Below, piece after piece: positions 10,512 through 61,639 of a DNA stretch of 64,000 bases. The number at the start of each line of letters is the position of its first letter. The stretch's first letter is position 1. The notes under the pieces are model-generated. The model worked only from the letters and a program-made list of their open reading frames with translations, searched no databases and had not been told where the DNA came from. The stretch covers positions 51,584,001 through 51,648,000 of the forward strand of contig CM059435.1 of assembly GCA_030390025.1 (NCBI GenBank). The letters are read 5' to 3'. This DNA comes from Squalus acanthias (Eukaryota). Both the position numbers and the translations under genes were made by a program.

Positions 10512-11206
10512 AAATACTTAAAATCTTTTTTTTCCCAATAATAGATTATTTGCTGCCCCTTTGATAAAGAGGTTTAAAAGTAAAGGAAAATAATTAATTG
10601 CCAAATGGCAAATAGAGCATACTTTCCAACAAAATGGAGGAAATAACCTTTCCTTTTTAGATGAAAAATGTGCAAAGTCTATCCTCATTGCAGATTCTAA
10701 AATACAACAAATAAAAGGTCGAAAATAAACCTTGTGCCTTCAATAATTTCATTCCCTTCAGGCTTATTACCCCCTATTGTAACAAGAATGAACGATGAAT
10801 ATACCTGTAACTCTAGTTATAAGCCCAAGTCCTACTGCTCTCTCAGTATAATGACTTGTTTCACATGTTGTAAAACATATTCAGGGCCATTTTGAGTCAT
10901 CAGCTTTTTTTAGGCTATGTTAGCATTTACTAGTTCTCTAGATTGGTATGCACAGTTCTGAATTCCAATCCTCCTCTCACATACAGGCAGCTTACTGTGG
11001 GAGTATAATACAGGGCGATTCCACTCAGTGTGAGGTTTCAATCTTACTACAAGATGGGCTAATGTGATCCTCAATCTGTCTGCTCTTAATTAAAGCTGAG
11101 TAGATCAAATGCCAACTGCATTCTGGTGGGGTCCACCAAGCTAAGAGAGGATCAACGAGGGAGCCTATCGAGATCCACATCCTGTCACACAAACATCTTC
11201 TATTCA

Positions 11207-12586
11207 AAAAGCAGGACAAATCCAACCCGGCCAATTACCGTCCCATCAGTCTACTCTCAGTCATCAGCAAAGTGATGGAAGGTGTCGTCGACAGTGCTTT
11301 CAAACACCAGTTACTCACCAGTAATCTGCTCACCAATGCTCAGTTTGGGTTCCGCCAGGACCACTCGGCTCCAGACCTCATTACAGCCTTGGTCCAAACA
11401 TGGACAAAGGAGCTGAATTCCAGAGGTGAGAGTGACTGCCTTTGACATCAAGGCAGCATTGGACCTAGTGTGGCATAAAGGAGCCCACGTTAAACTGAAG
11501 TCAATGGGAATCAGGGGGAAAACTCTCCACTGGCTGGAGTCATACCTAGCACAAAGGAAGATGGTTGTGGGGGTTGGAGGTCAATCATCTCAGCCCCAGG
11601 ACATTGCTGGAGGAGTTCCTCAGGGCAGTGTCCTAGGCCCAACCATCTTCAGCTGCTTCATCATAAGGTCAGAAGTGGGGATGTTCGCTGATGATTGCAG
11701 TGTTCCATTCCATTTGCAACTCCTCAGATAATGAAGCAGTCCATGCCCGGATGCAGCAAGACCTGGACGAAATTCAGGCTTGGGCTGATAAGTGGCAAGT
11801 AAAATTCACGCCACACAAGTGCCAGGCAATGACTATCTCCAACAGGCGAGAGTCTAACCACCGTCCCTTGACATTCAATGGCATTACCATTGCCGAATGC
11901 CCCACCATCAACATCCTGGGGGTTCACCATTGACCAGAAAATTAACTAGACCAGCCACATAAATACTGTGGCAATGAGAGCGGGTCAGAGGCTGGATATT
12001 CTGTGGCGAGTGTCTCACCTCCTGACTCCCCAAAACCTTTCCACCATCTACAAGGAACAAGTCAGGAGTGTGATGAAATACTCTCCACTTGCCTGGATGA
12101 GTGCAGCTCCAACAACACTCAAGAAGCTCGACACCATCCAGGACAAAGCAGCCCGCTTGATTGGTACCCCATCCCCCACCTTAAACATTCACTCCCCCAC
12201 CACCGGCATACTGTGGCTGCAGTGTGTACCATCTACAAGATGCACTGCCGCAACTCGCTAAGGCATCTTAGGCAGCAGCTCCAAAAACCCACGACCTTTG
12301 CCACCTAGATGGACAAGGGCAGCAGGCGCATGGAAACATCACCACCTCCAAGTTCCCCTCCAAGTCACATACCATCCTGACTTGGAAATATATCGCCGAT
12401 CCTTCATCGTCGCTGGGTCAAAATCCTGGAACTCCCTCCCTAACAGCACTGTGGGAGCACCTTCACCACATGGACTGCAGTGGCTCAAGAAGGCGGCTCA
12501 CCACCACCTTCTCAACGGCAATTTGGGATGAGCAATAAATGCTGACCTTGCCAGCAATGCCCACATCTCAGGAACAAATAAAAAAA
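11207..12586 (+). mobile_element. 5'-truncated APE-RT LINE (same family as 37795-40684; CR1-group, possibly Zenon-like)
   Basis: RT motifs [22 protein letters not shown]; 3' AATAAA then an A tail; TSD ATCTTC(T/A)ATTCA at 11195-11206 and 12587-12598. Confidence 0.9.
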
Positions 12587-13554
12587 ATCTTCAATTCATT
12601 AATAGAAACATATTTTAAGAAGAAATTTCTGTTAGTGTAAAGTGCGCCATTCGTCAAACAAATGCTTGGTTGTTTCAGACTACTTTAGAGCCATGTTGAA
12701 AAGCGCTGAAGGTTCACATTAGGCCCAAATCCTGCTGTTTGTGCTCTATAAATAGATTGTTAAGTCTTTAGATTTAGACAGTTGTTTCAACTCATCAAGG
12801 ACTGCAGCTAAATTGTTACACTAGAATAACAGCTTTGAGGAAGAAAGTCAAAATGTTCTCCTGCATTTCAGCTTTACTGCTGGACAGGAATGGGGCAGTA
12901 ACGCATTGAAAATCATAGCGCAACACTTACCGCACCATTCCTGCCAACAGCCAGGGGACTGCCATTTTGGTGGGGGCCTTGAAATGGGTGGTCCAGGCAT
13001 TCGCCAGAAACAGGCGGGAGCCTCGTTAGCCTTTGCAAATCGGGGTCCTATGGCGTCAATGGACCCCGATGAAATTTTGAGGTGGCCAATGTATTATTTC
13101 CAGTGAATGTAAATTCTGTTCAGTATCCCAACTTCCTACAAAAATCATTTTATTTATGCAGCAAAATGAAAACATCATTTAATTTAAAACTAGAAAGTGA
13201 CTTTGAGGAACTGCTTGTGCACAGCTTTCAAGAATGATGGCATTCTTCTGGGGAATTCTTCTTGGACCTAAACAAAAACAAATTGTGATAGGAATCAACT
13301 GAGGAAAGTCTGGAACAAAGAATCATCCCTCCACAGACCACGTACCATTTGGCCGAGCTGGTAAATGGGTCCAATGTGAAGCGAGCACCGGAATAGGCAC
13401 GGTGGTTTAAATGGCCTCGTTCTGTGCTGAAATTTCTATGCATGCTGTGAGGACTAAACCTGAGCAGTCTCCTTGAGGGAGGAGAAACACACTCTAGCAA
13501 AACCTCTGAAACTTCTTACTGACCCAAGGTAATTAAGAAGATGAAGGATATTAA

Positions 13555-27826: not shown

Positions 27827-28432
27827 ATTTTTTTAATCCATTTTTGGGATGTGAGTATTGCTGGAAAGGCCAGCATTTATTGATCACCCTTAATCGTCCT
27901 TGAGAAGGTGGTGGTGAGCCGCCTTCTTGAACTGCTGCAGTCCGTGTGGTGAAGATATTCCCACAGTGCTGTTAGGGAGGAAGTTCCAGGATTTTGACCC
28001 AGCAACGATGAAGGAACGATGATATATGACCAAGCCAGGATGGTGGGTGGCTTGGAGGGGAATTTGGAGGTGATGGTGTTCCCATGCATCTGCTGCCCTT
28101 GTCCTTCTAGGTTGTGGAGGTCACAGGTTTGGGAGGTGCTGCCGAAGCAGCCTTGGCGAGTTACTGCAGAGCATCTTGTAGATGGTACACACTGCAGAAA
28201 TGGTGTGAGTTGAGGGGGGGATATATTTAGGTTAGTGAATGAGGTGCTGATCCAGTCCTGGATGGTGTCAAGTTTCTTGAGTGTTGCTGCAGCTGCACCC
28301 ATCCAGGCAAGTGCAGAGTATTCCATCACACTCCTGATTTGTGCCTTTGTAGGTGGTAGAGAGGCGTGGTGGTGGTGGTGGTGGGGAGGCGGGGGGGGGG
28401 GCGCGGGGGTGTCAGGAGTTAGGGGGTTAATG
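27827..28432 (-). mobile_element. 3' fragment of the tRNA-headed LINE family
   Basis: KAQIRSVMEYSALAWMGAAAATLKKLDTIQD plus the family 3' UTR. Confidence 0.85.
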
Positions 28433-30161: not shown

Positions 30162-30968
30162 ATAGACTTATACAGCACAGAAAGAGGCCCTTTGGCCCAT
30201 CGTGTCTGCGCCGGCCATCAAGCCCTGTCTATTCTAATCCCATTTTCCAGCACTTGGTCCGTAGCTTTCTATGCTATGGCATTTCAAGTGCTCATCTAAA
30301 TGCTTCTTGAATGTTGAGGGTTCCTGCCTCTACCACCCTTTCAGGCAGTGAGTTCCAGATTCCAACCACCCTCTGGGTGAAAAAGTTTTTCCTCAAATCC
30401 CCTCTAAACCTCCTGCCCCTTACCTTGAAACTATGCCCCCTGGTTATTGACCCCTCTACTAAGGGGAAAAGTTCCTTTCTATCTACCCTATCTATGCCCC
30501 TCATAATTTTGTACACCTCAATCAGGTCCCCCCTCAGCCTTCTCTGCTCTAAGGAACACAACCCCAGCCTGTCCAGTCTCTCTTCATAGCTGAAGCGCTC
30601 CAGCCCAGGTAACATCCTGGTGAATCTCCTCTGCGCCCTCTCTAATGCAATCACATCCTTCCTATAGTGTGGTGACCAGAACTGCACACAGTATTCCAGC
30701 TGTGGCCTAACTAGCGTTTTGTACAGCTCCATCATAACCTCCCTGCTCTTATATTCTATGCCTCGGCTAATGAAGGCAAGTATCCCGTATGCCTTCTTAA
30801 CCACCTTATCTACCTGTCCTGCTGCCTTCAGGGATCTATGTACATGCACACCAAGGTCCCTCTGATCCTCTGTCCTTCCTAGGGTCCTTGTATTCCCTTG
30901 CCTTGTTAGTCCTCCCAAAATGCATCACCTCACACTTTTCAGGGTTAAATTCCATTTGCCACTGTTCT
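30162..30968 (-). mobile_element. Relatively young CR1 3' fragment
   Basis: Uninterrupted ORF 30292-30918: DLGVHVHRSLK...LYKTLVRPQLEYCVQFWSPHYRKD...NFFTQRVVGIWNSLP. Confidence 0.95.
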
Positions 30969-33084: not shown

Positions 33085-34470
33085 GGTGGAAATTCTTTCA
33101 CTGAAATTATTAATTTCACACAAAATCAGTGAAGATAGGGCTCCATCCAGTTCCAATTTTCCCCTGAAGTCAGCTTTGCTCTTCATGATTAAACTGAAAG
33201 CCCACTCTTCACCAGCATTACTATGGGAGAAGCACATGGACAAGTAAAGGCTACTTGAGACAACCTTGAAAAATGTTTCCTTCCACTGTGGTCTGTCATC
33301 TGAGAGAGGCAAGACCACAGCTCTTCAATTACTTTCTCTTCCTTCCACCTGAAGTGCAAACTAGCTATTTCAAAGGATTTGAAATCCTGGAACTTATCCT
33401 GCAAGGAATCCAGGTCATATGGTCGAAGACCAAGGACATTTGCAAATCTTGAACAGAAACCTTCTAGCTGTGATTTATCTTTTCCATCCAGGTCAATAAA
33501 TGTACTTTGTAAAAGAAGCACATCCTCAAAAGGAAGAATATTTGGTAATTGCTTCCTCTGACCAATAAAAAGTATCTATTTGAGAGTCATAAAGATCTTC
33601 TCTCACTTTAGTTAGGCATTGCTAGGTTGAAAATCCAATGTACAGTTCTGTCTACTTTGGAAGCTCTATTCATCTTTTATCCAGCACTTAAAAGAAGGTC
33701 TCCCTTTATAAGCCGACTTGACATTTTCTTCAAGAAGCTCCTCATCTATTCATGGAGAAAACAAATACAGGGCTCCTCTCTTTGAAGTGTCAGATTGGAA
33801 TTGGTAAATGAGAGTAAGAGAGCCTGGAGGAACATCAAATAAACCTTTGTAAAGGGATTCACGTTAAAAAAATTCTGGAATCCTTTGAAAAGGCCTGAAG
33901 ACTCTTAGTTACATATAAAAATTTGATTTTAAACCTTCAAAGAGTTTCAATATTCTGTTGATACAAAGTTCTAAACCCAAGCACCTGACACCAACAGGTT
34001 TAGTATTCAATGCCACACAAGTCACAAAACTCCATCAAGTATGATTTTCATTGTGGCCATTTGAATCAATGATACAAAGGCTTCCACATCAAGGTGGCTA
34101 ATGATACACTTGACAGAATGCCACTTTTTGCAGCATTGTGCACAACATGAAGTGGGCATCTTGAGAGCAGACATTTTCTTTTTGCTCACCAAGTTCAACC
34201 AAGATGCCCTTTCTACATCCAAGATTCACAGCAGCACTGGGGCGCTGTAATTTGTTAAGCCACGGCCATACTTCTGCAGAGCATTCTCATTCAAATCCAA
34301 ATCCAGAAGCACTGTGCTGGCTTTCTTCCGTCAAACATTCTGACAAACATTAGATTCATCTTTTCTAAATCTTGGTTGTTGCTGCCCTCTATGTGAATGC
34401 TTTACTCGCTGTCACCAGATCTTTAACAAATGTAAGCATTCATTAATCGTGCATCAAGTTTTCAATCTGG
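33085..34470 (-). pseudogene. hAT-superfamily transposase fossil
   Basis: C-terminal dimerisation motif HSNAGEEWAFSLI.K.K.DFR..L; decayed RW-L equivalent (VRCLGLELCINRILKLFEGLK) near 33930-34000; frameshifts and stops; TIRs not found. Confidence 0.75.
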
Positions 34471-35403: not shown

Positions 35404-35788
35404 TTTTATTTGTTCCTGGGATGTGGGCATCGCTGACAAGGCCAGCATTTATTGCCCATCCCTAGTTGACCTTGAGAATGTGATGGTGAGCCGACTTCTT
35501 GAACCGCTACAGTCCGTGTGGTGTAGGAAGTGCTGCTAAAGAGGGAGTTCCAGGATTTTGACCCAGCGACGATGAAGGAACAGTGTGACTTGGAGGACAA
35601 CTTGGAGGTGGTGGTGTTCCCATGTGCCCGCTGCCCTTGTCCTTCTAGGTGGTAGAGGTCGCAGGTTTGGGAGGTGCTGCCGAAGAAGTCTTGGCGAGTT
35701 GCTGCGGTCCATCTTGTAGATGGTACACACTGCAGCCACGGTGCACCGGTGGTGGAGGGAGTGAATGTTTAAGGTGGAGGATGGGGTG
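35404..35788 (-). mobile_element. 3' fragment of the tRNA-headed LINE family
   Basis: AAVCTIYKM..SNSPRLLRQHLP plus the family 3' UTR. Confidence 0.85.
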
Positions 35789-37437: not shown

Positions 37438-37794
37438 AAGTAATTTAACACATCATAACCTGAAAGTATACCACGTATTCAGGGAGTGTTTTTGGGTCTG
37501 TTAATTTTAACACCTGCATTATGTAGAAAATTAAAATACAACCATACCATGGCAGGTACAATGTTAGCGAGTTCCCTAAACTTTAGAAGCCTTGTTAGTC
37601 ATATGCTGATCCTGTGCACGTAATTATTCATGGTATGATGTGAACATGCTTGTGGAATTGTTTAGTACTATTCTTCAGTTCAGTCTGCTCATGTGAAGGT
37701 ACTCAGCACCAAAGAAACATACGTGATAATTCAGGCTGTAGACACCCAGGCAAGGTTTGTAGCACGCCAAGTACTTTCCCAACCATCCCTCTGC

Positions 37795-40684
37795 TTTTTT
37801 TTATTCGATTATGGGATGTGGGCGTCGCTGGCAAGGCCAGCATTTATTGCCCATCCCTAATTGCCCTTGAGAAGGTGGTGATGAGCCTCCTCCTTGAACC
37901 GCTGCAGTCCGTGTGGTGAAGGTACTCCCATAGTGCTGTTAGGGAGGGAGTTCCAGGGTTTTGACCCAGAGACGATGAAGGATCGGCGATATACTTCGAA
38001 GTCAGGATGGTGTGTGACTTGGAGGGGAACTTTGAGGTGATGGTGTTCCCATGCGTCTGCTGCACTTGTCCTTCTAGGTGGAAGAGGTCGCGGGTTTGGG
38101 AAGTGCTGCCGAAGAAGCCTTGGCGAGTTGCTGCAGTGCATCTTGTAGATGGTACACACTGCAGCCACGGTACGCCGGTGGTGGAAGGAGTGAATGTTTA
38201 AGGTAGTGGATAGGTTGCCAATCCAGCGGGCTGCTTTGTCCTGAATGGTGTTGAGCTTCTTGAGTGTTGTTGGAGCTGCACTCATCCAGGCAAGTGGAGA
38301 GTATTCCATCACACTCCTTACTTGTGCCTTGTAGATGGTGGAAAGGCTTTGGGGAGTCAGGAGGTGAGACACTTGCTGCAGAATACCCAGCCTCTGACCT
38401 GCTCTTGTTGCCACAGTATTTATGTGGCTGGTCCAGTTAAGTTTCTGGTCAATGGTGACCCCCCAGGATGTTGATGGTGGGGGATTCGGCGATGGTAATG
38501 CCATTGAATGTCAAGGGGAGGTGGTTAGACTCTCGCTTGTTGGAGATAGTCATTGCCTGGCACTTATGTGGCGCAAATGTTACCTTCCACTTATCAGCCC
38601 AAGCCTGAACGTCATCCAGGTCTTGTTGCATGCGGGCATGGACTGCTTCATTATCTGACGAGTTGTGAATGGCACTGAACACTGTGCAGTCATCAACGAA
38701 CATCCCCATTTCTGACCTTATGTTGGAGGGAAGGTCGTTGATGAAGCAGCTGAAGATGTTGAGCCTAGGACACTGCCTTGAGGAACTCCTGCAGTGATGC
38801 CCTGGGATGATTGACCTTCAACCACCACCCTTTGTGCTAGGTATGACTCCAGCCAGTGGAGAGTTTTTCCCCCGATTCCCATTGATTTCAGTTTTACTCG
38901 GGCTCCTTGATGCCACACTTGGTCAAATGCTGCCTTGATGTCTAGCGCCGTCACTCTCACCTACCCTCTGGAATTCAGCTCCTTTGTCCATGTTTGGACC
39001 AAGGCTGTAATAAGGTCGGGAGCCAAGTGGTCTTGGTGGAACCCAAACTGAGCATCAGTGAGCAGGTGCCACTTCATAGCACTGTTGATGACACCTTCCA
39101 TTACTTTGCTGACATTTTAGAGTAGACTGATGGGGTGGTAATTGTCCTGCTTTTTGTGGACAGGACACACCTGGGCAGTTTTCCACATTGTCGGATAGAT
39201 GCCAGTGTTGTAGCTGTAGTGGAACAGCTTGGCTAGAGGCGCGGCTAGTTCTGGAGCACAAGTCTTCAGCACGATAGCCGCGATGTTGTTGTGGCCCATA
39301 GCCTTTGCTGTATCCAGTGCACTCAGCCGTTTCTTGATATCACGCGGAGTGAATTGAATTGGCTGAAGACTGGCTTCTGTGATGGTGTGTCCTCCGGAGT
39401 AGGCCAATATGAATCATCCATCCACTTGGCACTTCTGGCTGAAAATGCTTCAGCCTTGTCTTTTGCACTCACATGCTGGGCTCCACCATCATTGAGGATG
39501 GGGATATTCATAGAGCCACCTCCTCCCGTTAGTTGTTTAAATTTTTAGTTACACCTGGTGGTACTCCTGGCATGCTCTTCTACACTCCTTATTGAACCAG
39601 GGTTGGTCCCCTGGCTTGATGGTAATGGTAGAGTGAGGGATATACCAGGCCATGAGGTTACAGATTGTGGTGTAATACAATTCTGCCACTGCCCCACCTG
39701 GATGCCCAGTTTTAAGCTGCTAGATCTGTTCTGAATCTATCCCATTTAGCACGGTGGTAGTGCCACACAACACAATGGAGGGTGTCCTCAGTGTGAAGAC
39801 GGGACTTTGTCTCCACAATGACGGTGGTCACTGCTACCAATACTGTCATGGCAGATGCATCTGCGACAGGTAGATTGGTGAGGACGAGTAGGTTTTTCCC
39901 TCGTGTTGGTTCTCTGGCATCTATGTCTTTCAGGTGCGACTGAACCACTCTTGGTGATAGACATTGAAGTCCCCCACCCAGAGTACATTCTGTGCCCTTG
40001 CTACTCTCAGTGCTTTTTCCAAGTGGTGTTCAACATGGAGGAGTACTGATTCATCAGCTGAGGGAGGGCAGTAGGATTTCCTTGCCCATTCTTGACCTGA
40101 AGCCATGAGACTTCCAGGGACACTCCTTCCCGACTGTATATATATATATATAAACCACTGTGCCGCCACCCCTGGTAGGTCTGTTCTGCCGTTGGACAGG
40201 ACATACCCAGGGATGGTGATGGAGGAGTTTGGGGCTGAGTATGACTATGTCAGGCTGTTGCTTGACTAGTCTGTGGGACAGCTCTCCCAATTTTGGCACA
40301 AGTCCCCAAGATGTTGGTGAGGGTCGACTGGACTGGGTGTGCCGAGGTCAGGTGGTCCATCCGGTTTTTACAATTGAGTGGATTGCTAGGCCATTTCAGA
40401 GGGCAGTTAAGAGTCAACCACATTGCTATGGGTCTGGAATCACATGTAGGCCAGACCAGGTAAGGACAGCAGATTTCAATGACATTAGTAAACCAGATGG
40501 GTTTTACGACAATCCGATAGTTTCACGGTTACCATTACTGATACTAGCTTTTTATTCCAGATTTATTGAATTAACTGAATTTAAATTCCCCAGCTGCCGT
40601 GGTGGGATTTGAACTCATATCTCTGGATCATTAGTCCAGGCCTCTGGATTACTAACCCAGTGACATTACCACTATGCTACCGTT
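37795..40684 (-). mobile_element. Full-span but decayed APE-RT non-LTR retrotransposon with a tRNA-derived 5' head
   Basis: Minus strand: A box TAGCATAGTGG, B box GAGTTCAAATCC, ~300-nt body, APE (PDIVIL, WVGDFN), RT (ALDIKAAFD, GVPQGSVLG, MFVDD), AATAAA and A tail; TSD CTCTGC (37789-37794, 40685-40690). Confidence 0.9.
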
Positions 40685-41440
40685 CTCTGCGTTGGTCTCA
40701 CCTTCCCCATGATCCCACATGCTCTAAGTTTCAGTGCACCTTCCAATTCCTTTCATTGTCTTTATGCAATCTCTGAATATGGGCTCGCTACACATGTTTT
40801 AGGGGAAGTGCAAGTGGAGTAATTTAGTGAAAAGATCCCTTAACTAACAAGCTAAATTCAACTTGCGCACAGAATCTCAATGTCCCGACACTAGGGTGTA
40901 ATTCTGGGAGGAGTACAAAACACAAACTATTACAAATACCACTTATTCCTCATGCTCACACACTCATTTTGCCTGTGAGATAAATGTATGAATTTCTACA
41001 TATGAATTTCTTTAAAATGATAAAAAATGAAAATGAAAAATTGGTTGGCAATACTTCAATATTCTTTGATCAACTGTTAAATGTCGATGTGTATGTTTGG
41101 ATACAAGTGTATGCATATTCATTTCCTCAACATCTCAATTATAGACATCTGTATCACAAGACAATACAAATACAATGATCAGACCAGATGTCTGCTTTAA
41201 CATGGCAAACGGGATCTTCTTAGTTTTCTTTGCCCTGACAGAAAGGCTGGCCTCTGTACAATGTTTAACAGTGGACTGACCAAGAACTGATGAAACTCAC
41301 CCAACTGAAAGTAGCAATGAGAATTGAACTTCCACATTCTGGTTGGGAATCAACTGGTCCTCCTGATTCAACCACTGGACCATCCCTGCTATGGTCAATA
41401 TCAGTGGATTACTAACACTTTATGGTTTTGTTTTCTCTAG

Positions 41441-43130: not shown

Positions 43131-44462
43131 AACTCCATCCCAGATTGAGGGACTTATCCCTCTGTTGACTATATCTGTACTATTGTTCTACTATTGGGAA
43201 TGAGTTTCAGATGGTCACAGTCAAGTTCTCAGTAATTATGAGACCTCAGTACAAAGCTGCCAATGGATGAGTGCCAATCTGCAGGCTCCCTGAAGAGAGG
43301 ACATGTGGATAACTGGTACAGAAGATGGGATTGACACACTGGTGCAAGCTTGGGTTAAAGGATATTGTTGGGGCAAAGTAGAACCAGCTTTACTCTGCAC
43401 ATAGACCATGCTATACGTATTGTTCATTAACTTACACTGGCATCCCAGACTATGATCAACTTAAAAATTCACTAAGAAAGCACAAAGCAAAATGGAGATA
43501 CTAGAAGTTGAAAGCTGAAGTTGCCTTTCACTAACCAACAGGGATAACTTGAAAAGTTAACTACCGATATATGCTGAAAACATATAAATGAGACATTTGC
43601 ATGAGTCAGGAATAGTTACATATGTAACCCTCGAGTGTCCATACCTCCACAATACATCTTACTGTACCCCTCAACTGTCCCCATTTAATATGAGTCAATC
43701 GTGTCCCACTATCCCGACTTTGGAGCAACATTAAGATGTCCTCCGGGCCTAAAGATTTTAGACCTAAAATTTTGTTTTGGTGTTCAGGAAAAAGCAACGC
43801 CAAAATACTGTGAACTGGGTGATGCAAACTTAGATATCAATCACTCTCAGACTTAATCTAGGCGGTAAACCCCAGACAGTTCCTTAGTTGAGTTGAGGGG
43901 GTTAAAGATTTGTCTGGTTCCTTGACATATAGTTCTCAGGATACCAAAACCCAGAGTTCATACAAGGGAATTGGATGAGTTCCTGTTTCAGTGGGCAGTA
44001 AAGGGGTAAGAGTTTGCGATAGAATGAGAAAAAAAACATCATCTTCGGGTTCTGAATCCAGACCTGGTTGGGCTGAATGTCATTTTATCATAGTTCATTC
44101 TTTTTCATTATGCTTTTTATTGTGATGTAACCATATCTAGTTAGGACTACTTGGATGAGAATCCTGGAATCTGGGGGAAGGGGTGCCAGAGGAACAGAGT
44201 GTAGGGTCCTTCTGGATCAGTGATCTGGAAGGGGCCAAATGGCATCCTTCATCCATATCTTTCTTGTGTTCCTGTGAAAAGTGGCAGAAATCTGTGTTCA
44301 AGTTGAAGTTCCGCCTTGGACATACTTAGAACTGAAAGCAGCTTCCACTTCAGCACATTGTAATTTACGTGGCTCCAATCTGGGATCAGGTAGGGTGGGC
44401 TGGGTTCAATTTCATTCATTTGGAAGCTAGCCACTAACATGATGCCTTTTGCTTTCTTGCAG

Positions 44463-44959
44463 TACTTGTCCTCCTCATCTTGACTCTGAAGAGACACAGA
44501 AAGGGTCACATGATCTCAGAGGACGAGGAAGACATGCGCGACAACGTAATTAAGTACAACGACGAAGGAGGAGGGGAGGAAGACACCGAGGCCTACGACA
44601 TGACGACGTTACGAAGTCTGTACGATTTCACAGAAGTCAAAGCAGACGGAGAAAACGTGACCCCTGAACTTCATTCTCTGCCCCAATGGTTTCAGAATCC
44701 GGATGCAGATTTTTCCATTTTCAGGAGTTTTGTCTGTAAAAAGCTCGAAGAGGCTGATGCCGATCTCTCTGTTCCTCCGTACGACTCTTTTCAAACGTAT
44801 GCATATGAAGGCACAGACTCAGTGGCTCAGTCGCTCAGCTCCATTAACTCTCTGTCCACTGACTCAGATCAGGACTATAACTACCTCAGTGACTGGGGGC
44901 CTCGATTTAGGCAGCTCGCTGGACTTTACTCAGGAAATCAGGCAGATGACGGATCCTAG
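44463..44959 (+). CDS. cdh22: Cadherin-22 last coding exon (end of TM, p120- and beta-catenin-binding cytoplasmic domain)
   Basis: CACTAAC branch point, CTTTTGCTTTCTTGCAG acceptor. VLVLLILTLKRH..EDMRDNVIKYNDEGGGEEDTEAYDM..LRSLYDF and DLSVPPYDSFQTYAYEG..DWGPRFR.LA.LY are CDH22-specific wording. TAG at 44957-44959. Confidence 0.95.
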
Positions 44960-57620: not shown

Positions 57621-58781
57621 GCCATCACCGTGGGCAGTCTCCCCAACAAGAAGCTGAATTTTCAGGTGGGGTGGGGGTAAAGAGAGCAAAGTGACAAATG
57701 AAACAGAAATCTTCAATATGGAGGGGGTAGAAGGGAGAAAGAGAGAGGAGGAGGAAGGAGGGGAGGAAGGTTGAAAAAGGGGGAGGAGGAGAGAGAAGAA
57801 TGGAAGAGAGCAGAGGTGAAGGGGGAGACGGGGTGGGAGAAACGGGGGAGGGGTGGGCGAAACAGCGGAGGGGGGAGAAGGTAGAAGAGGGTCGGAGGGG
57901 TAGAAGATGGCAGAAGTTGGCATTATTAATCAAAATCCAGTCTAGGGCACATAGAGGTGATCTTCTTAAGTTGAAATTGAGGCACGGTAAAGCGAGCTTT
58001 AATTTGGTTCTGACCTGGGAGCACTCAATAGTGACACAGGTTGCAAGTGTCTGCTTTCTTAGCCTGGTCAATTCTAGTCTCATTAATCTCAAAGAAAACA
58101 AACAATTTAAGTAAGTCAAAAACATAGCATTGATGTCCTAGTTATACTCAGAAGGCAAGTTAACAAGCAGGAAGTATTGGAAAACAAAATGGGCCAGATT
58201 TTACAACACAACACAATGTACAGCACAGAAACAGGCCATTCAGCCCAATTGTCCTATGCCAGCATCTATGCTCCACACGAGCCTCCTCCCACCCTCTTCA
58301 TATTGGCTATCCTTCTATTCCTTTCTCCCTCATGTACTTACCTAGCCTCCCCTTAAATGTATCTATGCTATTCGCCTCAACTACACCTTGTGGTAGCTTC
58401 GCAAGCTTAACCTCCCTGTGAGTTGCTGCATTTGCAGGTTAATTGCCCACGAAACTCGCCATAGAAAGTTAAGTCTAGTAATTAAGAGCGCAAGAACCCT
58501 TTTAACAACATGATAATTGTTAATGGCTGCCGATCAACCTATCTGGCCCAAAAAGTGAAGAATTATAAGTGTGGAGTCTTCAAATTATGAATTGTTATAG
58601 GAGATTTTTAAAAAGGTCAAATTTTAAATGTTTTACTTTATTTTCTTACCTTTCCTTCCTGTCTTTTTTTTCTGTCTTTCTTAATCCAACCTTCCTGTAT
58701 TTCTCTTTCTGTACCTGATTTGACATTGGGCTGGATTTTGTGGTAGAAATAGAGAGGCTTACAGCGCTCACCATTATTTAT

Positions 58782-61070
58782 TTTTTTTAATTCGTTCCTG
58801 GGATGTGGGCATCACTGGCATTTATTGCATATCTCTAATTGTCCTTGTGAAGGTGGTGGTGAGTTGCCTCCTCGCATGGTGAAGGTACTCCCATAGTGCT
58901 GTTAGGTAGGGAGTTCCAGGATTTTTGACCCATCAACGATGAAGGAACGGTGATATATTTCCAATTCAGGATGCTGTGTAACTTGGAGGGGAACTTGGAG
59001 GTGATGGTGTTCCCATGTGCCTGCTGCCCTTGTCCTTCTAGGTGATAGTATCGTAGGTTTGGGAGGTGCTGCCGAAGAAGCCTTGATAGCACTGTCGACA
59101 ACACCTTCCATCACTTTGCTGATGATTGAGAGTAGACTGATGGGGCGGTAATTGGCCAGATTGGATTTGTCCTTTTTTTTTGTGGACAGGACTTACCTGG
59201 GCAGTTTTCCACATTGTCGGGTAGATGCCAGTGTTGTAGTTATACTGGAACAGCTTGGCTAGAGGCGCAGCTAATTCTGGAGCACAAATCTTCAGCACGA
59301 CAGCTAGGATATTGTCGAGGTCCATTTCCTTTGCTGTATCCAGTGCGTTCAGCCGTTTCTTGATATCATGTGCCGTGAATCGAATTGGCTGAAGACCGGC
59401 TTCTGTGATGGTGGGGACCTCAGGAGGAGGCCAATATGGATCAACCACTCTGCACTTCTGGCTGAAGATGGTTGCAAATGCTTCAGCCTTGTCTTTTGCA
59501 CTCACCTGCTGGGCTCCGCCATCATTGTGGATGGCGATGTTCATGGAGCCTCCTCTTCCAGTCAGTTGTTTAATGGTCTACCACCATTCACGACTGGATG
59601 TGGCAGGACTGCAGAGCTTTGATCTGATCCATTAGTTGTGGGATCCATTAGCTCTCTCTATAGCATGTTGCTTCTGTTGTTTAGCATGCATGTAGTCCTG
59701 TGTTGCTGCTTCCCCAGGTTGGCACCTCATTTTTAGGTACGCCGGGTGCTGCTCTAGGCATGCTCTTTACTGAACCAGGGTTGGTCCCCTGGCTTGATGG
59801 TAATGGTAGAGTGAGGGCTATGCCGGGCCATGAGGTTACAGATTGTGGTGGAATACAATTCTGCTGCTGATGATCCACAGTGCCTCATGGATGCCCAGTT
59901 TTGAGCTGCTAGAATTGTTCTGAACCTATCCCATTTAGCACGGTGGTAGTGCCACACAACACGATGGAGGGTGTCCTCAGTGTGAAGACGAGACTTTGTC
60001 TCCACAAGGACTGTGCAGTGGTCACTGCTACCAATAATGTCATGGACAGATGCATCTGCGACAGGTAAATTGGTGAGGACGAGGTCAAATAGGTTTTTCC
60101 CTCGTGTTGGTTCTCTCACCACCTGTTTCAGGCCCAGTCTGGCAGCTATGTCCCTCAGGACTTGGTCAGCTCGGTCAGTAGTGGTGCTACTGAGCCACTC
60201 ATGGTGATGAAGATTGAAGTCCCCCACCCAGAGTACATTCTGTGCCCTTGCCACCCTCAGTGCTTCTTCCAAGTGGTGGTCAACATGGCGGAGTACTGAT
60301 TCATCAGCTGAGAGAGGGCGGTAGGTGGTAATCAGCATGAGGTTTCCTTGCCCATGTTTGACTTGAAACCATGAGACTTCATTGGGTCGGAGTCAATGTT
60401 GAAGATTCCCAGGGCCACTGCTTCCCGACTGTATACCACTGTGCCACCACCCCTGGTGGGTCTGTCCTGCCGGTGGGACAGGACATACCCAGGGATGGTG
60501 ATGGAGGCGTCTGGGACATTGGCAGAAAGGTATGATTCTGTGAGTATGACTATGTCAGGCTATTGCGTGACTGGTCTGTGGAACAGCTCTCCCAATTTTG
60601 ACATAGGTACCCAGATGTTAGTGAAGAGGACTTTGCAGAGTCGACTGGGCTGGGTGTGCCGTTGTCGTGTCCGAAGCCGAGATCGATGCCGGGTGGTCAG
60701 TCTGGTTTTATTCTTATTAATGTTTCTTGTAGTGGTTTGTTACAACTGAGTGGCTTGCGAGGCCATTTCAGAGGGCAGTTAAAAGTCAACCACCTTGCTG
60801 TGGGTCTGGAGTCACATATAGGCCAGACCAGGTAAGGACGGCAGATTTCCTTCCCTATTAGTGAACCAGATGGGTTTTTACAACAATCCGGTAGTTTCAT
60901 GGTCACCATTACTGATACCAGCTTTTTATTTATTTCACCAGATTTATTTAATTAACTGAATTTAAATTCCAAAGCTGCCATGCTGGGATTTGAACTCAAG
61001 TCTCCAGATTATAAATGCAGGCCTCTCGATTACTGATCCAGTAACATAACCACTATGCTACCGTTCCCGC
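58782..61070 (-). mobile_element. tRNA-headed APE-RT retrotransposon, copy with the RT core deleted
   Basis: Same head and body as 40300-40684; APE ORF 59754-60338 (LITTYRP, WVGDFN, DLVLTN, SDH); junction near 59085 skips the RT core; TSD TATTTAT (58775-58781, 61071-61077). Confidence 0.9.
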
Positions 61071-61639
61071 TATTTATGTAGAAATTGGACAGCAACTTCC
61101 AGCGAATGCACATGTGCAGTTAAACACGGAAATCAGGACGTTGCGAGATGCCCTGCTCTTCCAGAAGCTTCCCGAGAATGGTATCTGGCCGTCTGGCTCA
61201 CCATTCAAATACATTGTACAGCGTGAGGTTGCTGTACTTATTTAATAGATACGTACTAAACTTGCCATAAAAAGTTAGAGCTTGTCCATTCAGTGTATGT
61301 AGTCGTTTAATGGTGTGATAAGTCTTAATTACTGTCAAACAGCCTCTCTGGCACTGAAAATTAACTTGTACAAAATTTTAATTATTGTTGGAGATTTCAA
61401 ATGATTAAAAAAGATAAAAATAATTTTGTGTCTCTTTTTTCCTCTTAATCCAACCTTTCTTTGCCTCTCTATTTTACTTTCTGTACCTGATTGGACACTG
61501 AATTCAATATTCCAACGGACACTTCCTGGTTCAGACTCTGCGCTGCTCGTTAATGATCGTTAACGATTCTTCAATCTGATTGGTTAAGGAGATACACAGT
61601 TGCTTCCCTGTTCACACAGGTCCCAGATACCCTGTAGAG

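Follow-up and report, generated by a model that had tools for sequence, protein, structure and literature searches.

The coding frame of an elasmobranch Zenon LINE and its tRNA-like head form one mobile unit

RESULTS

Two decayed LINE copies with a tRNA-like head

The window analyzed here is a 64,000-nt stretch of the Squalus acanthias genome (contig CM059435.1, positions 51,584,001 to 51,648,000). It holds two minus-strand LINE copies and three shorter pieces of the same family, at the following positions.

37795..40687, minus strand: copy 1, a tRNA-headed Zenon LINE, full length but decayed, 4.7% off the family majority
40669..40679, minus strand: A box of copy 1, placed by sequence and mapping
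40624..40662, minus strand: anticodon-like arm of copy 1 (AGT in the loop), followed by a second, extra arm
40605..40616, minus strand: B box of copy 1, placed by sequence and mapping
40400..40604, minus strand: leader body of copy 1, common to the SINE derivatives and unlike the Meta domain
40374..40399, minus strand: anticodon-like hairpin of copy 1, directly ahead of the frame
37857..40369, minus strand: remnant single frame of copy 1, with a basic N terminus, an APE endonuclease (TNI from 40318), and a reverse transcriptase (RT)
37795..37856, minus strand: 3' UTR of copy 1, with a stem-loop and an A tail
37789..37794, no strand: 3'-side duplication of copy 1, CTCTGC (partner at 40685-40690)
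58782..61068, minus strand: copy 2, a tRNA-headed Zenon LINE, an older variant, 8% off the majority
61050..61060, minus strand: A box of copy 2, placed by sequence and mapping
60986..60997, minus strand: B box of copy 2, placed by sequence and mapping
60746..60771, minus strand: hairpin of copy 2 ahead of the frame, with one loop base altered
59757..60622, minus strand: APE endonuclease region of copy 2 (TNIW from 60622; Pfam PF14529, E 4e-12)
58775..58781, no strand: 3'-side duplication of copy 2, TATTTAT (partner at 61071-61077)
11205..12587, plus strand: 5'-truncated family copy (RT and tail)
27828..28372, minus strand: 3' fragment of the tRNA-headed family
35404..35788, minus strand: 3' fragment of the tRNA-headed family

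Copies 1 and 2 can be aligned end to end through the A box, two short arms, the B box, a body of about 230 nt, and the endonuclease. The first-pass annotation had placed two minus-strand copies with a tRNA-like head and both boxes here, and they lie where it put them, with the ends refined to 40687 and 61068. Its order of parts, from head through body to endonuclease and RT, also held, with the qualification that both copies are decayed. The frame of copy 1 carries 26 indels, 17 of them frame-shifting; its hairpin has one altered stem base, and the matching codon was removed by a 31-nt deletion. Copy 2 has lost about 980 nt of the RT region near 59085, including the RT core, and its A tail extends to 58782. 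The body had been called SINE-like and put at about 300 nt; it is indeed common to SINE derivatives and is shorter than that. Both copies are dead members of an abundant, 3.3-kb LINE family of sharks and rays.

Other features of the window were recorded as well. At 44438-44959 on the plus strand, a classical cadherin gene has its last coding exon (Pfam PF01049, E 1e-30), and copy 1 probably sits antisense in an intron upstream of it. A young CR1 family, with 97 to 99% identity genome-wide and much younger than the tRNA-headed family, is represented at 30295-30924 (minus strand). A 128-codon frame at 33192-33575 (minus strand) gave no Pfam match; we take it to resemble a DNA-transposase fragment.

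The family encodes a single selected APE-RT frame and is an elasmobranch Zenon

The majority sequence of 29 full-length copies is 3,319 nt long, with a mean copy divergence of 4.3%. It contains one stop-free frame of 973 codons, an APE-RT frame running from nt 333 onward, which bears out the earlier claim that the element lacks an ORF1. Real copies match Pfam PF03372, PF14529, and PF00078 (endonuclease and RT), and full-length copies carry A tails. Among 60 copies, private changes gave an omega of 1.06 and 60 stops versus 63 expected, while changes common to at least 5 copies gave an omega of 0.35 and 0 stops versus 6.7 expected. This pattern of substitutions indicates that the master copies kept a functional protein under selection.

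By eye, the first 400 letters of the consensus row SquAca_Zenon-1 agree essentially letter for letter with the family majority, and the lengths are 3,314 and 3,319 nt. The rows compared over their first 400 letters were SquAca_Zenon-1/2/3, CarCar, RhiTyp, ScyCan, and HypSab_Zenon-1, and by eye the head stands at the start in all five species, four sharks and one ray. On this match we identify the family with the Zenon LINE that Stuart et al. 2026 (PMC13343379) catalogued in elasmobranchs; the available text of that study describes it as having no ORF1 and a poly-A tail, and we see no sequence difference between the two. The element is less novel than had been assumed, since the sequence is already published and the absence of ORF1 is normal for Zenon. 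The text available for that study makes no mention of tRNA, Pol III, or a promoter, and its supplement none of tRNA (PMC13343379). In a literature search at the title and abstract level, with most subscription journals, Repbase, and Dfam outside its scope, no coding LINE with a tRNA head was described. The papers found do not comment on the head, the avoidance of T runs, or the missing AUG.

In a tree of about 60 RTs, which contained no labelled Zenon protein, the family grouped with elements of lancelet, sponge, and moth, apart from shark CR1 (33%) and L2 (26%). The nearest proteins belong to single-frame elements of other contigs and of lancelet, sponge, and moth, with 45 to 51% RT identity; no relative was found in viral contigs. 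The esterase ORF1 and the clustering with vertebrate CR1 that mark canonical CR1 elements are both absent. Like a SINE2, the family has a tRNA-derived 5' head with A and B boxes, but at 3.3 kb with a selected frame it is neither short nor non-coding; that description fits only its deletion derivatives (16/52).

Pieces of the LINE protein also occur in shark gene models from Heptranchias, Heterodontus, Pristiophorus, and Scyliorhinus. Public shark models named aldo-keto reductase, GPR139, and VIAAT (P0003, P0005, and P0011) hold such pieces and are probably annotation artifacts.

Head and coding frame move together

A first search of the 3.7-Gb genome gave thousands of candidate family loci. 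To avoid bias, copies were followed outward from the endonuclease. Thirty loci anchored on it were all collinear with the leader until they were truncated: 18 ended in the head, 6 in the body, and 6 in the linker or endonuclease. One of the 30 is copy 2 itself, and two are duplicates of each other. None had any other shared sequence upstream (0/30), which answers the suggestion that long copies might extend into a different 5' UTR or an ORF1, and the upstream flanks had nothing in common at the junction. Family copies start at GGGAACGG, 8 nt ahead of the A box, which is the 5' end of a tRNA.

Exact head-pattern matches numbered 667, and the first 52 in genome order were followed downstream. 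The endonuclease follows in 29 and another coding part in 3; in 16 the head is fused to the 3' end, giving a SINE, and 4 are ambiguous. The SINE junctions are recurrent, with four at one 3' site, and retain the last codons of the LINE frame, so the SINEs are deletion derivatives of the LINE. The proposed link to a bipartite SINE holds to the extent that the head-plus-tail SINEs arose by internal deletion; the LINE may be the parent of the first such SINE or may have captured an older one.

Variants in the head and leader showed linkage with coding variants as far as 3 kb off (pair 334/3191, P 1e-6; pair 29/3113, P 6e-4), these being the best pairs of 231 tested, with P values from 1e-6 to 1e-3. 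The body-endonuclease join and the SINE joins recur in sequencing-run contigs of other organisms, and a contig of a more distant organism holds the head-to-LINE junction (686-1299 of the contig stretch compared). At least half of the family's words were present in 17 of 24 sequencing-run rows from several organisms, and one raw DNA run contributed 0 reads; the rows are contigs or DNA and speak to occurrence, and neither their depth nor an RNA label bears on expression, transcript start, cap, or strand. Together, these data establish the head and the coding frame as one mobile unit.

A SINE that landed beside or inside a LINE, or an assembly artifact, has next to no probability as an explanation. 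The window taken by itself offers it an opening, since both duplications are short and each overlaps an element end. It is refuted by the presence of the same junction at dozens of loci with unrelated flanks, in the consensus rows of five species, and in the contig of the more distant organism. The first-pass annotation had likewise dismissed a SINE beside a LINE, from the position of the duplications.

Variation at the 5' end was also seen. Copies L163 and L127 carry tandem repeats of the first 20 to 30 nt of the head, a pattern expected of template jumping by the reverse transcriptase. Many others, among them L160, L164, L168, and L170, have a one-armed rather than a two-armed head, in both LINE and SINE forms; recombination between the similar arms may have removed one of them, or the single arm may be the older condition.

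Target-site duplications are short

The duplications CTCTGC and TATTTAT are present letter for letter as first described. That of copy 1 overlaps the first three bases of the family, and that of copy 2 merges with the A tail and ends 2 nt short of the head. Across 25 full-length copies, the median duplication was 3 nt, and 4/25 reached at least 6 nt, compared with 5.5% expected from mismatched flank pairs. Of 28 copies, 3 had been excluded because their heads were incomplete, and one further copy because it had no A tail. Mean length was above chance (permutation P 0.00035), and a stricter test on 13 filter-caught copies gave P 0.03, with copy 2 showing no match. As proof of a single unit the duplications were set aside, because they are too short and partly overlap the element ends, and the unit claim rests instead on the family comparison.

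Structure of the head and leader

The head of a sister copy scored 29.8 bits against the Rfam tRNA model (cutoff, 29), with an insertion of about 21 nt; ARAGORN found no tRNA gene in the 64-kb window. Among five isotypes compared, Thr(AGT) matched best (47/74 letters), and tRNA-Gln, the rejected candidate donor, stood just below it (44/72). The original label of the head as tRNA-Thr-like is thus the best of five by a narrow margin and should be taken as a weak lead. Tandem arrays of tRNA genes occur at G000:C21:3.34-3.40 Mb and C26:41.6-44.0 Mb and on C29 and C2208; their genes are of three types: Gln, with CTG and TTG alternating at a spacing of about 600 nt; Thr(AGT), repeating every 2.06 kb; and Lys(TTT), repeating every 1.8 kb. 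MetaSINE identity, suggested by the Thr-like head, was rejected because the body, compared by eye, is unlike the 66-bp Meta consensus in the available supplement of PMC7245038.

The second, extra arm lies between the A and B boxes and shows two compensatory changes between the SquAca and ScyCan rows (by eye). By eye, the boxes and the head are kept in the rows of all five elasmobranch species. Within the genome, few parts of the leader vary as much as the A box (7.1% versus 2 to 3%); the low figure for the B box is biased by how the copies were selected. The 359-nt leader of one copy folded no better than shuffled sequences (z, -0.5), and three loci gave no match to Rfam ribozyme families. The leader also holds six ATGs besides the one discussed below, and two AATAAA motifs. 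At leader nt 210-241 (window positions of about 40455 to 40490, partly deleted in copy 1) lies a possible second pseudoknot, with loop UUAGGGA and a downstream UCCUUA; in the whale-shark row, one pair is altered on both sides and two others are broken (by eye).

The sense strand lacks T4 runs

Scanning the sense strand for Pol III terminators, as had been proposed, gave 0 T4 runs in 3,302 nt versus 3.9 expected (P 0.014). T3 runs numbered 7 versus 20 expected, while A4, C4, and G4 were not absent, and 3 of 18 Phe codons were written TTT. The shark CR1 majority holds 16 T4 runs in 2,576 nt, and the shark L2 majority holds 6 in 1,600 nt. Among non-shark relatives, 79/80 have T4 in the matched coding stretch, the exception being a 1.5-kb fragment (L312) with none and 2.0 expected. 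Under stricter nulls, the absence was not significant (dinucleotide shuffle, P 0.23; own-codon shuffle, P 0.11); both nulls absorb the low TT content, which is itself the signal. Shared mutations showed no measurable avoidance of T4-making sites, in a low-power comparison of 38 sites. No tRNA head was found in non-shark relatives by ARAGORN or blastn (80 loci) or by Rfam (14/80), and many of those contigs may stop short of the 5' end.

These observations bear on which polymerase makes the RNA. One possible but rather doubtful reading is that the head was captured once as a passenger and that Pol II, from leader or host promoters, makes a capped RNA, which would be translated by amber read-through of an ATG-GCC-TAG or by AUG-independent re-initiation. 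AUG-independent re-initiation occurs in L1 ORF2. The weakness of the T4 absence under strict nulls speaks for this reading and, like the variability of the A box, against transcription by Pol III. The same is true of general expectation: in the available text of two reviews, LINEs are held to be transcribed by Pol II, and SINEs to be Pol III-transcribed, short, and non-coding (PMC10886601, PMC5786205), and one of them holds Pol III products of mobile elements to be short and ascribes the SINE size of 100 to 700 nt to weak Pol III processivity (PMC10886601). On the other hand, a passenger head leaves unexplained the exact tRNA start, the kept boxes, and the difference in T runs from CR1, from L2, and from the relatives.

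The frame opens without an AUG

No in-frame Met occurs until codon 287 of 973, past the endonuclease. A TAA precedes the frame, whose first stretch is rich in Arg and resembles the N termini of relatives. Just upstream lies an in-frame ATG-GCC-TAG, with the ATG in good context nine codons ahead and one or two stops between. Among 65 copies, this mini-frame has the ATG in 64, TAG in 47, CAG in 11, and TAA in 59. By eye, the ATG is kept in all five species, three of which have a single in-frame TAG followed by CAA. These points speak for a capped Pol II message. Read-through of a single TAG fits those three species but not the dominant, selected two-stop subfamilies in this genome, which carry the TAA as well. 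The RhiTyp row is also out of frame by one base between the ATG and the frame; consensus errors do occur, since the SquAca row likewise differs from the family majority by one base. The six other leader ATGs and the two AATAAA motifs further count against this reading.

Two other candidate starts were rejected: an ACG at 342, where the other four species have ACA or AAA (by eye), and an out-of-frame ATG at 361 with a frameshift, which is absent in 18/65 copies and has no slippery heptamer that we could see by eye.

The letters of ATG-GCC-TAG also form a hairpin with the 7-nt loop CUAGCAA; the AGC within it is complementary to an in-frame GCU that lies 21 nt past the loop. Four anticodon-like loops with a matching codon occur in the element, two of them being the head's own arms. 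A hairpin with its cognate codon arose in shuffled sequences at a rate of 0.00135, for a motif defined post hoc. By eye, the loop and the GCU are kept in five species, while the flanking bases and the next codon vary. A common stem variant (17/60 copies) gives a G-U pair, and the second U of the loop is altered in 11/65 copies. The pairing is treated as a lead, because loop and codon showed no compensatory change and conservation is high throughout the leader.

A division of labor, in which Pol III would make the template RNA while intronic copies, through rare read-through transcripts made by Pol II, would supply the protein in trans, seems to us very unlikely. Under it, no uncapped RNA would have to be translated, and the SINE derivatives are themselves moved in trans. 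Many copies are intronic, 39% of CR1-Zenon in the available part of a whale-shark preprint, where CR1-Zenon appears only as the name of a repeat class. Action in cis is indicated instead by the selection that the frame shows in expanding lineages and by the linkage of leader and coding variants, and the frame would still have no AUG.

DISCUSSION

We lean, with modest confidence, toward an autonomous Zenon LINE that would be transcribed by Pol III from its tRNA head and would begin protein synthesis from a codon other than AUG, a reading drawn from the sequence features above. An ancestral, AUG-starting Zenon would have had its 5' leader replaced with a tRNA head by template switching before the split of sharks and rays. 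TFIIIC and Pol III could then read the entire element once U-tract terminators had been purged. The uncapped RNA would be loaded on ribosomes by way of the conserved 3' half of the leader, with translation starting within about ten codons past the hairpin. By target-primed reverse transcription, the protein would copy the RNA that encodes it, and the duplications left behind would be very short or absent.

How the frame might be set is suggested by analogy. Tentatively, the hairpin-loop anticodon AGC could pair with the in-frame GCU and so set the frame, in the way of pseudoknot I in dicistrovirus IRESs, an idea to which we give limited credence. As described in the available part of PMC3517527, that pseudoknot shares the 7-nt anticodon-like loop, the downstream in-frame triplet, and the non-AUG frame. 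Unlike it, the element offers only 3 to 4 possible pairs, no covariation, and no triple-pseudoknot fold, and the likeness is one of resemblance only. The accessible text of a review raises dicistrovirus-type IRESs as a possibility for LINEs (PMC3894237).

Uncapped messages have a precedent among LINEs. The uncapped RNA of ribozyme-bearing LINEs (R2, L1Tc, and RTE) is translated. In the partial accounts available, these, like the present family, are single-frame LINEs, but their uncapped RNA is cut from Pol I or Pol II transcripts by 5' HDV-like ribozymes. The closest non-shark relative of the family (L251:110-210) has a long 5' leader without an Rfam match; we take it to resemble the HDV-like ribozyme leaders of RTE elements.

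With other Zenon and CR1-group LINEs, the family shares the single APE-RT frame, a short N-terminal extension, and internally deleted derivatives. Lepidopteran Zenon has such a deleted form, Persaeus, described in the available text as without tRNA homology or a Pol III promoter (PMC6740152). Hagfish and coelacanth Zenon rows start without a tRNA head in their first 400 letters, compared by eye. Metagenome relatives are rich in T4, and the closest of them has an in-frame ATG ahead of the endonuclease. From the SINE side, the SINE2 and bipartite SINEs (PMC5786205), HE1, SacSINE1, and MetaSINEs resemble the family, in the sources available, in their tRNA head, boxes, conserved body, and LINE tail; MetaSINE heads are also described there as Thr-like (PMC4824008, PMC7245038). 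The known shark SINEs HE1, SacSINE1, and CmiSINEs, compared by published description only, have other partners (PMC5499810, PMC3747384).

Taken to its full extent, the proposal is that of an autonomous coding element with a 3.3-kb uncapped Pol III RNA, a Met-free start by a tRNA-mimicking pseudoknot, and SINEs spawned by deletion across sharks and rays; by analogy it could be so, but in its entirety we regard it as unlikely.

Should Pol II do the work, the family would be a well-documented case in which a LINE captured a SINE head, mainly of interest to repeat specialists. The divide between LINEs and SINEs is drawn by polymerase in the available text of two reviews (PMC10886601, PMC5786205), and a coding LINE transcribed by Pol III, if true, would break that rule. 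It would mean that a tRNA promoter has been in use since before the shark-ray split and that Pol III makes a multi-kilobase message. It would also provide an example, in a cellular genome and tractable through a 350-nt leader, of cap- and AUG-independent translation, and would reveal how a LINE can turn directly into a SINE.
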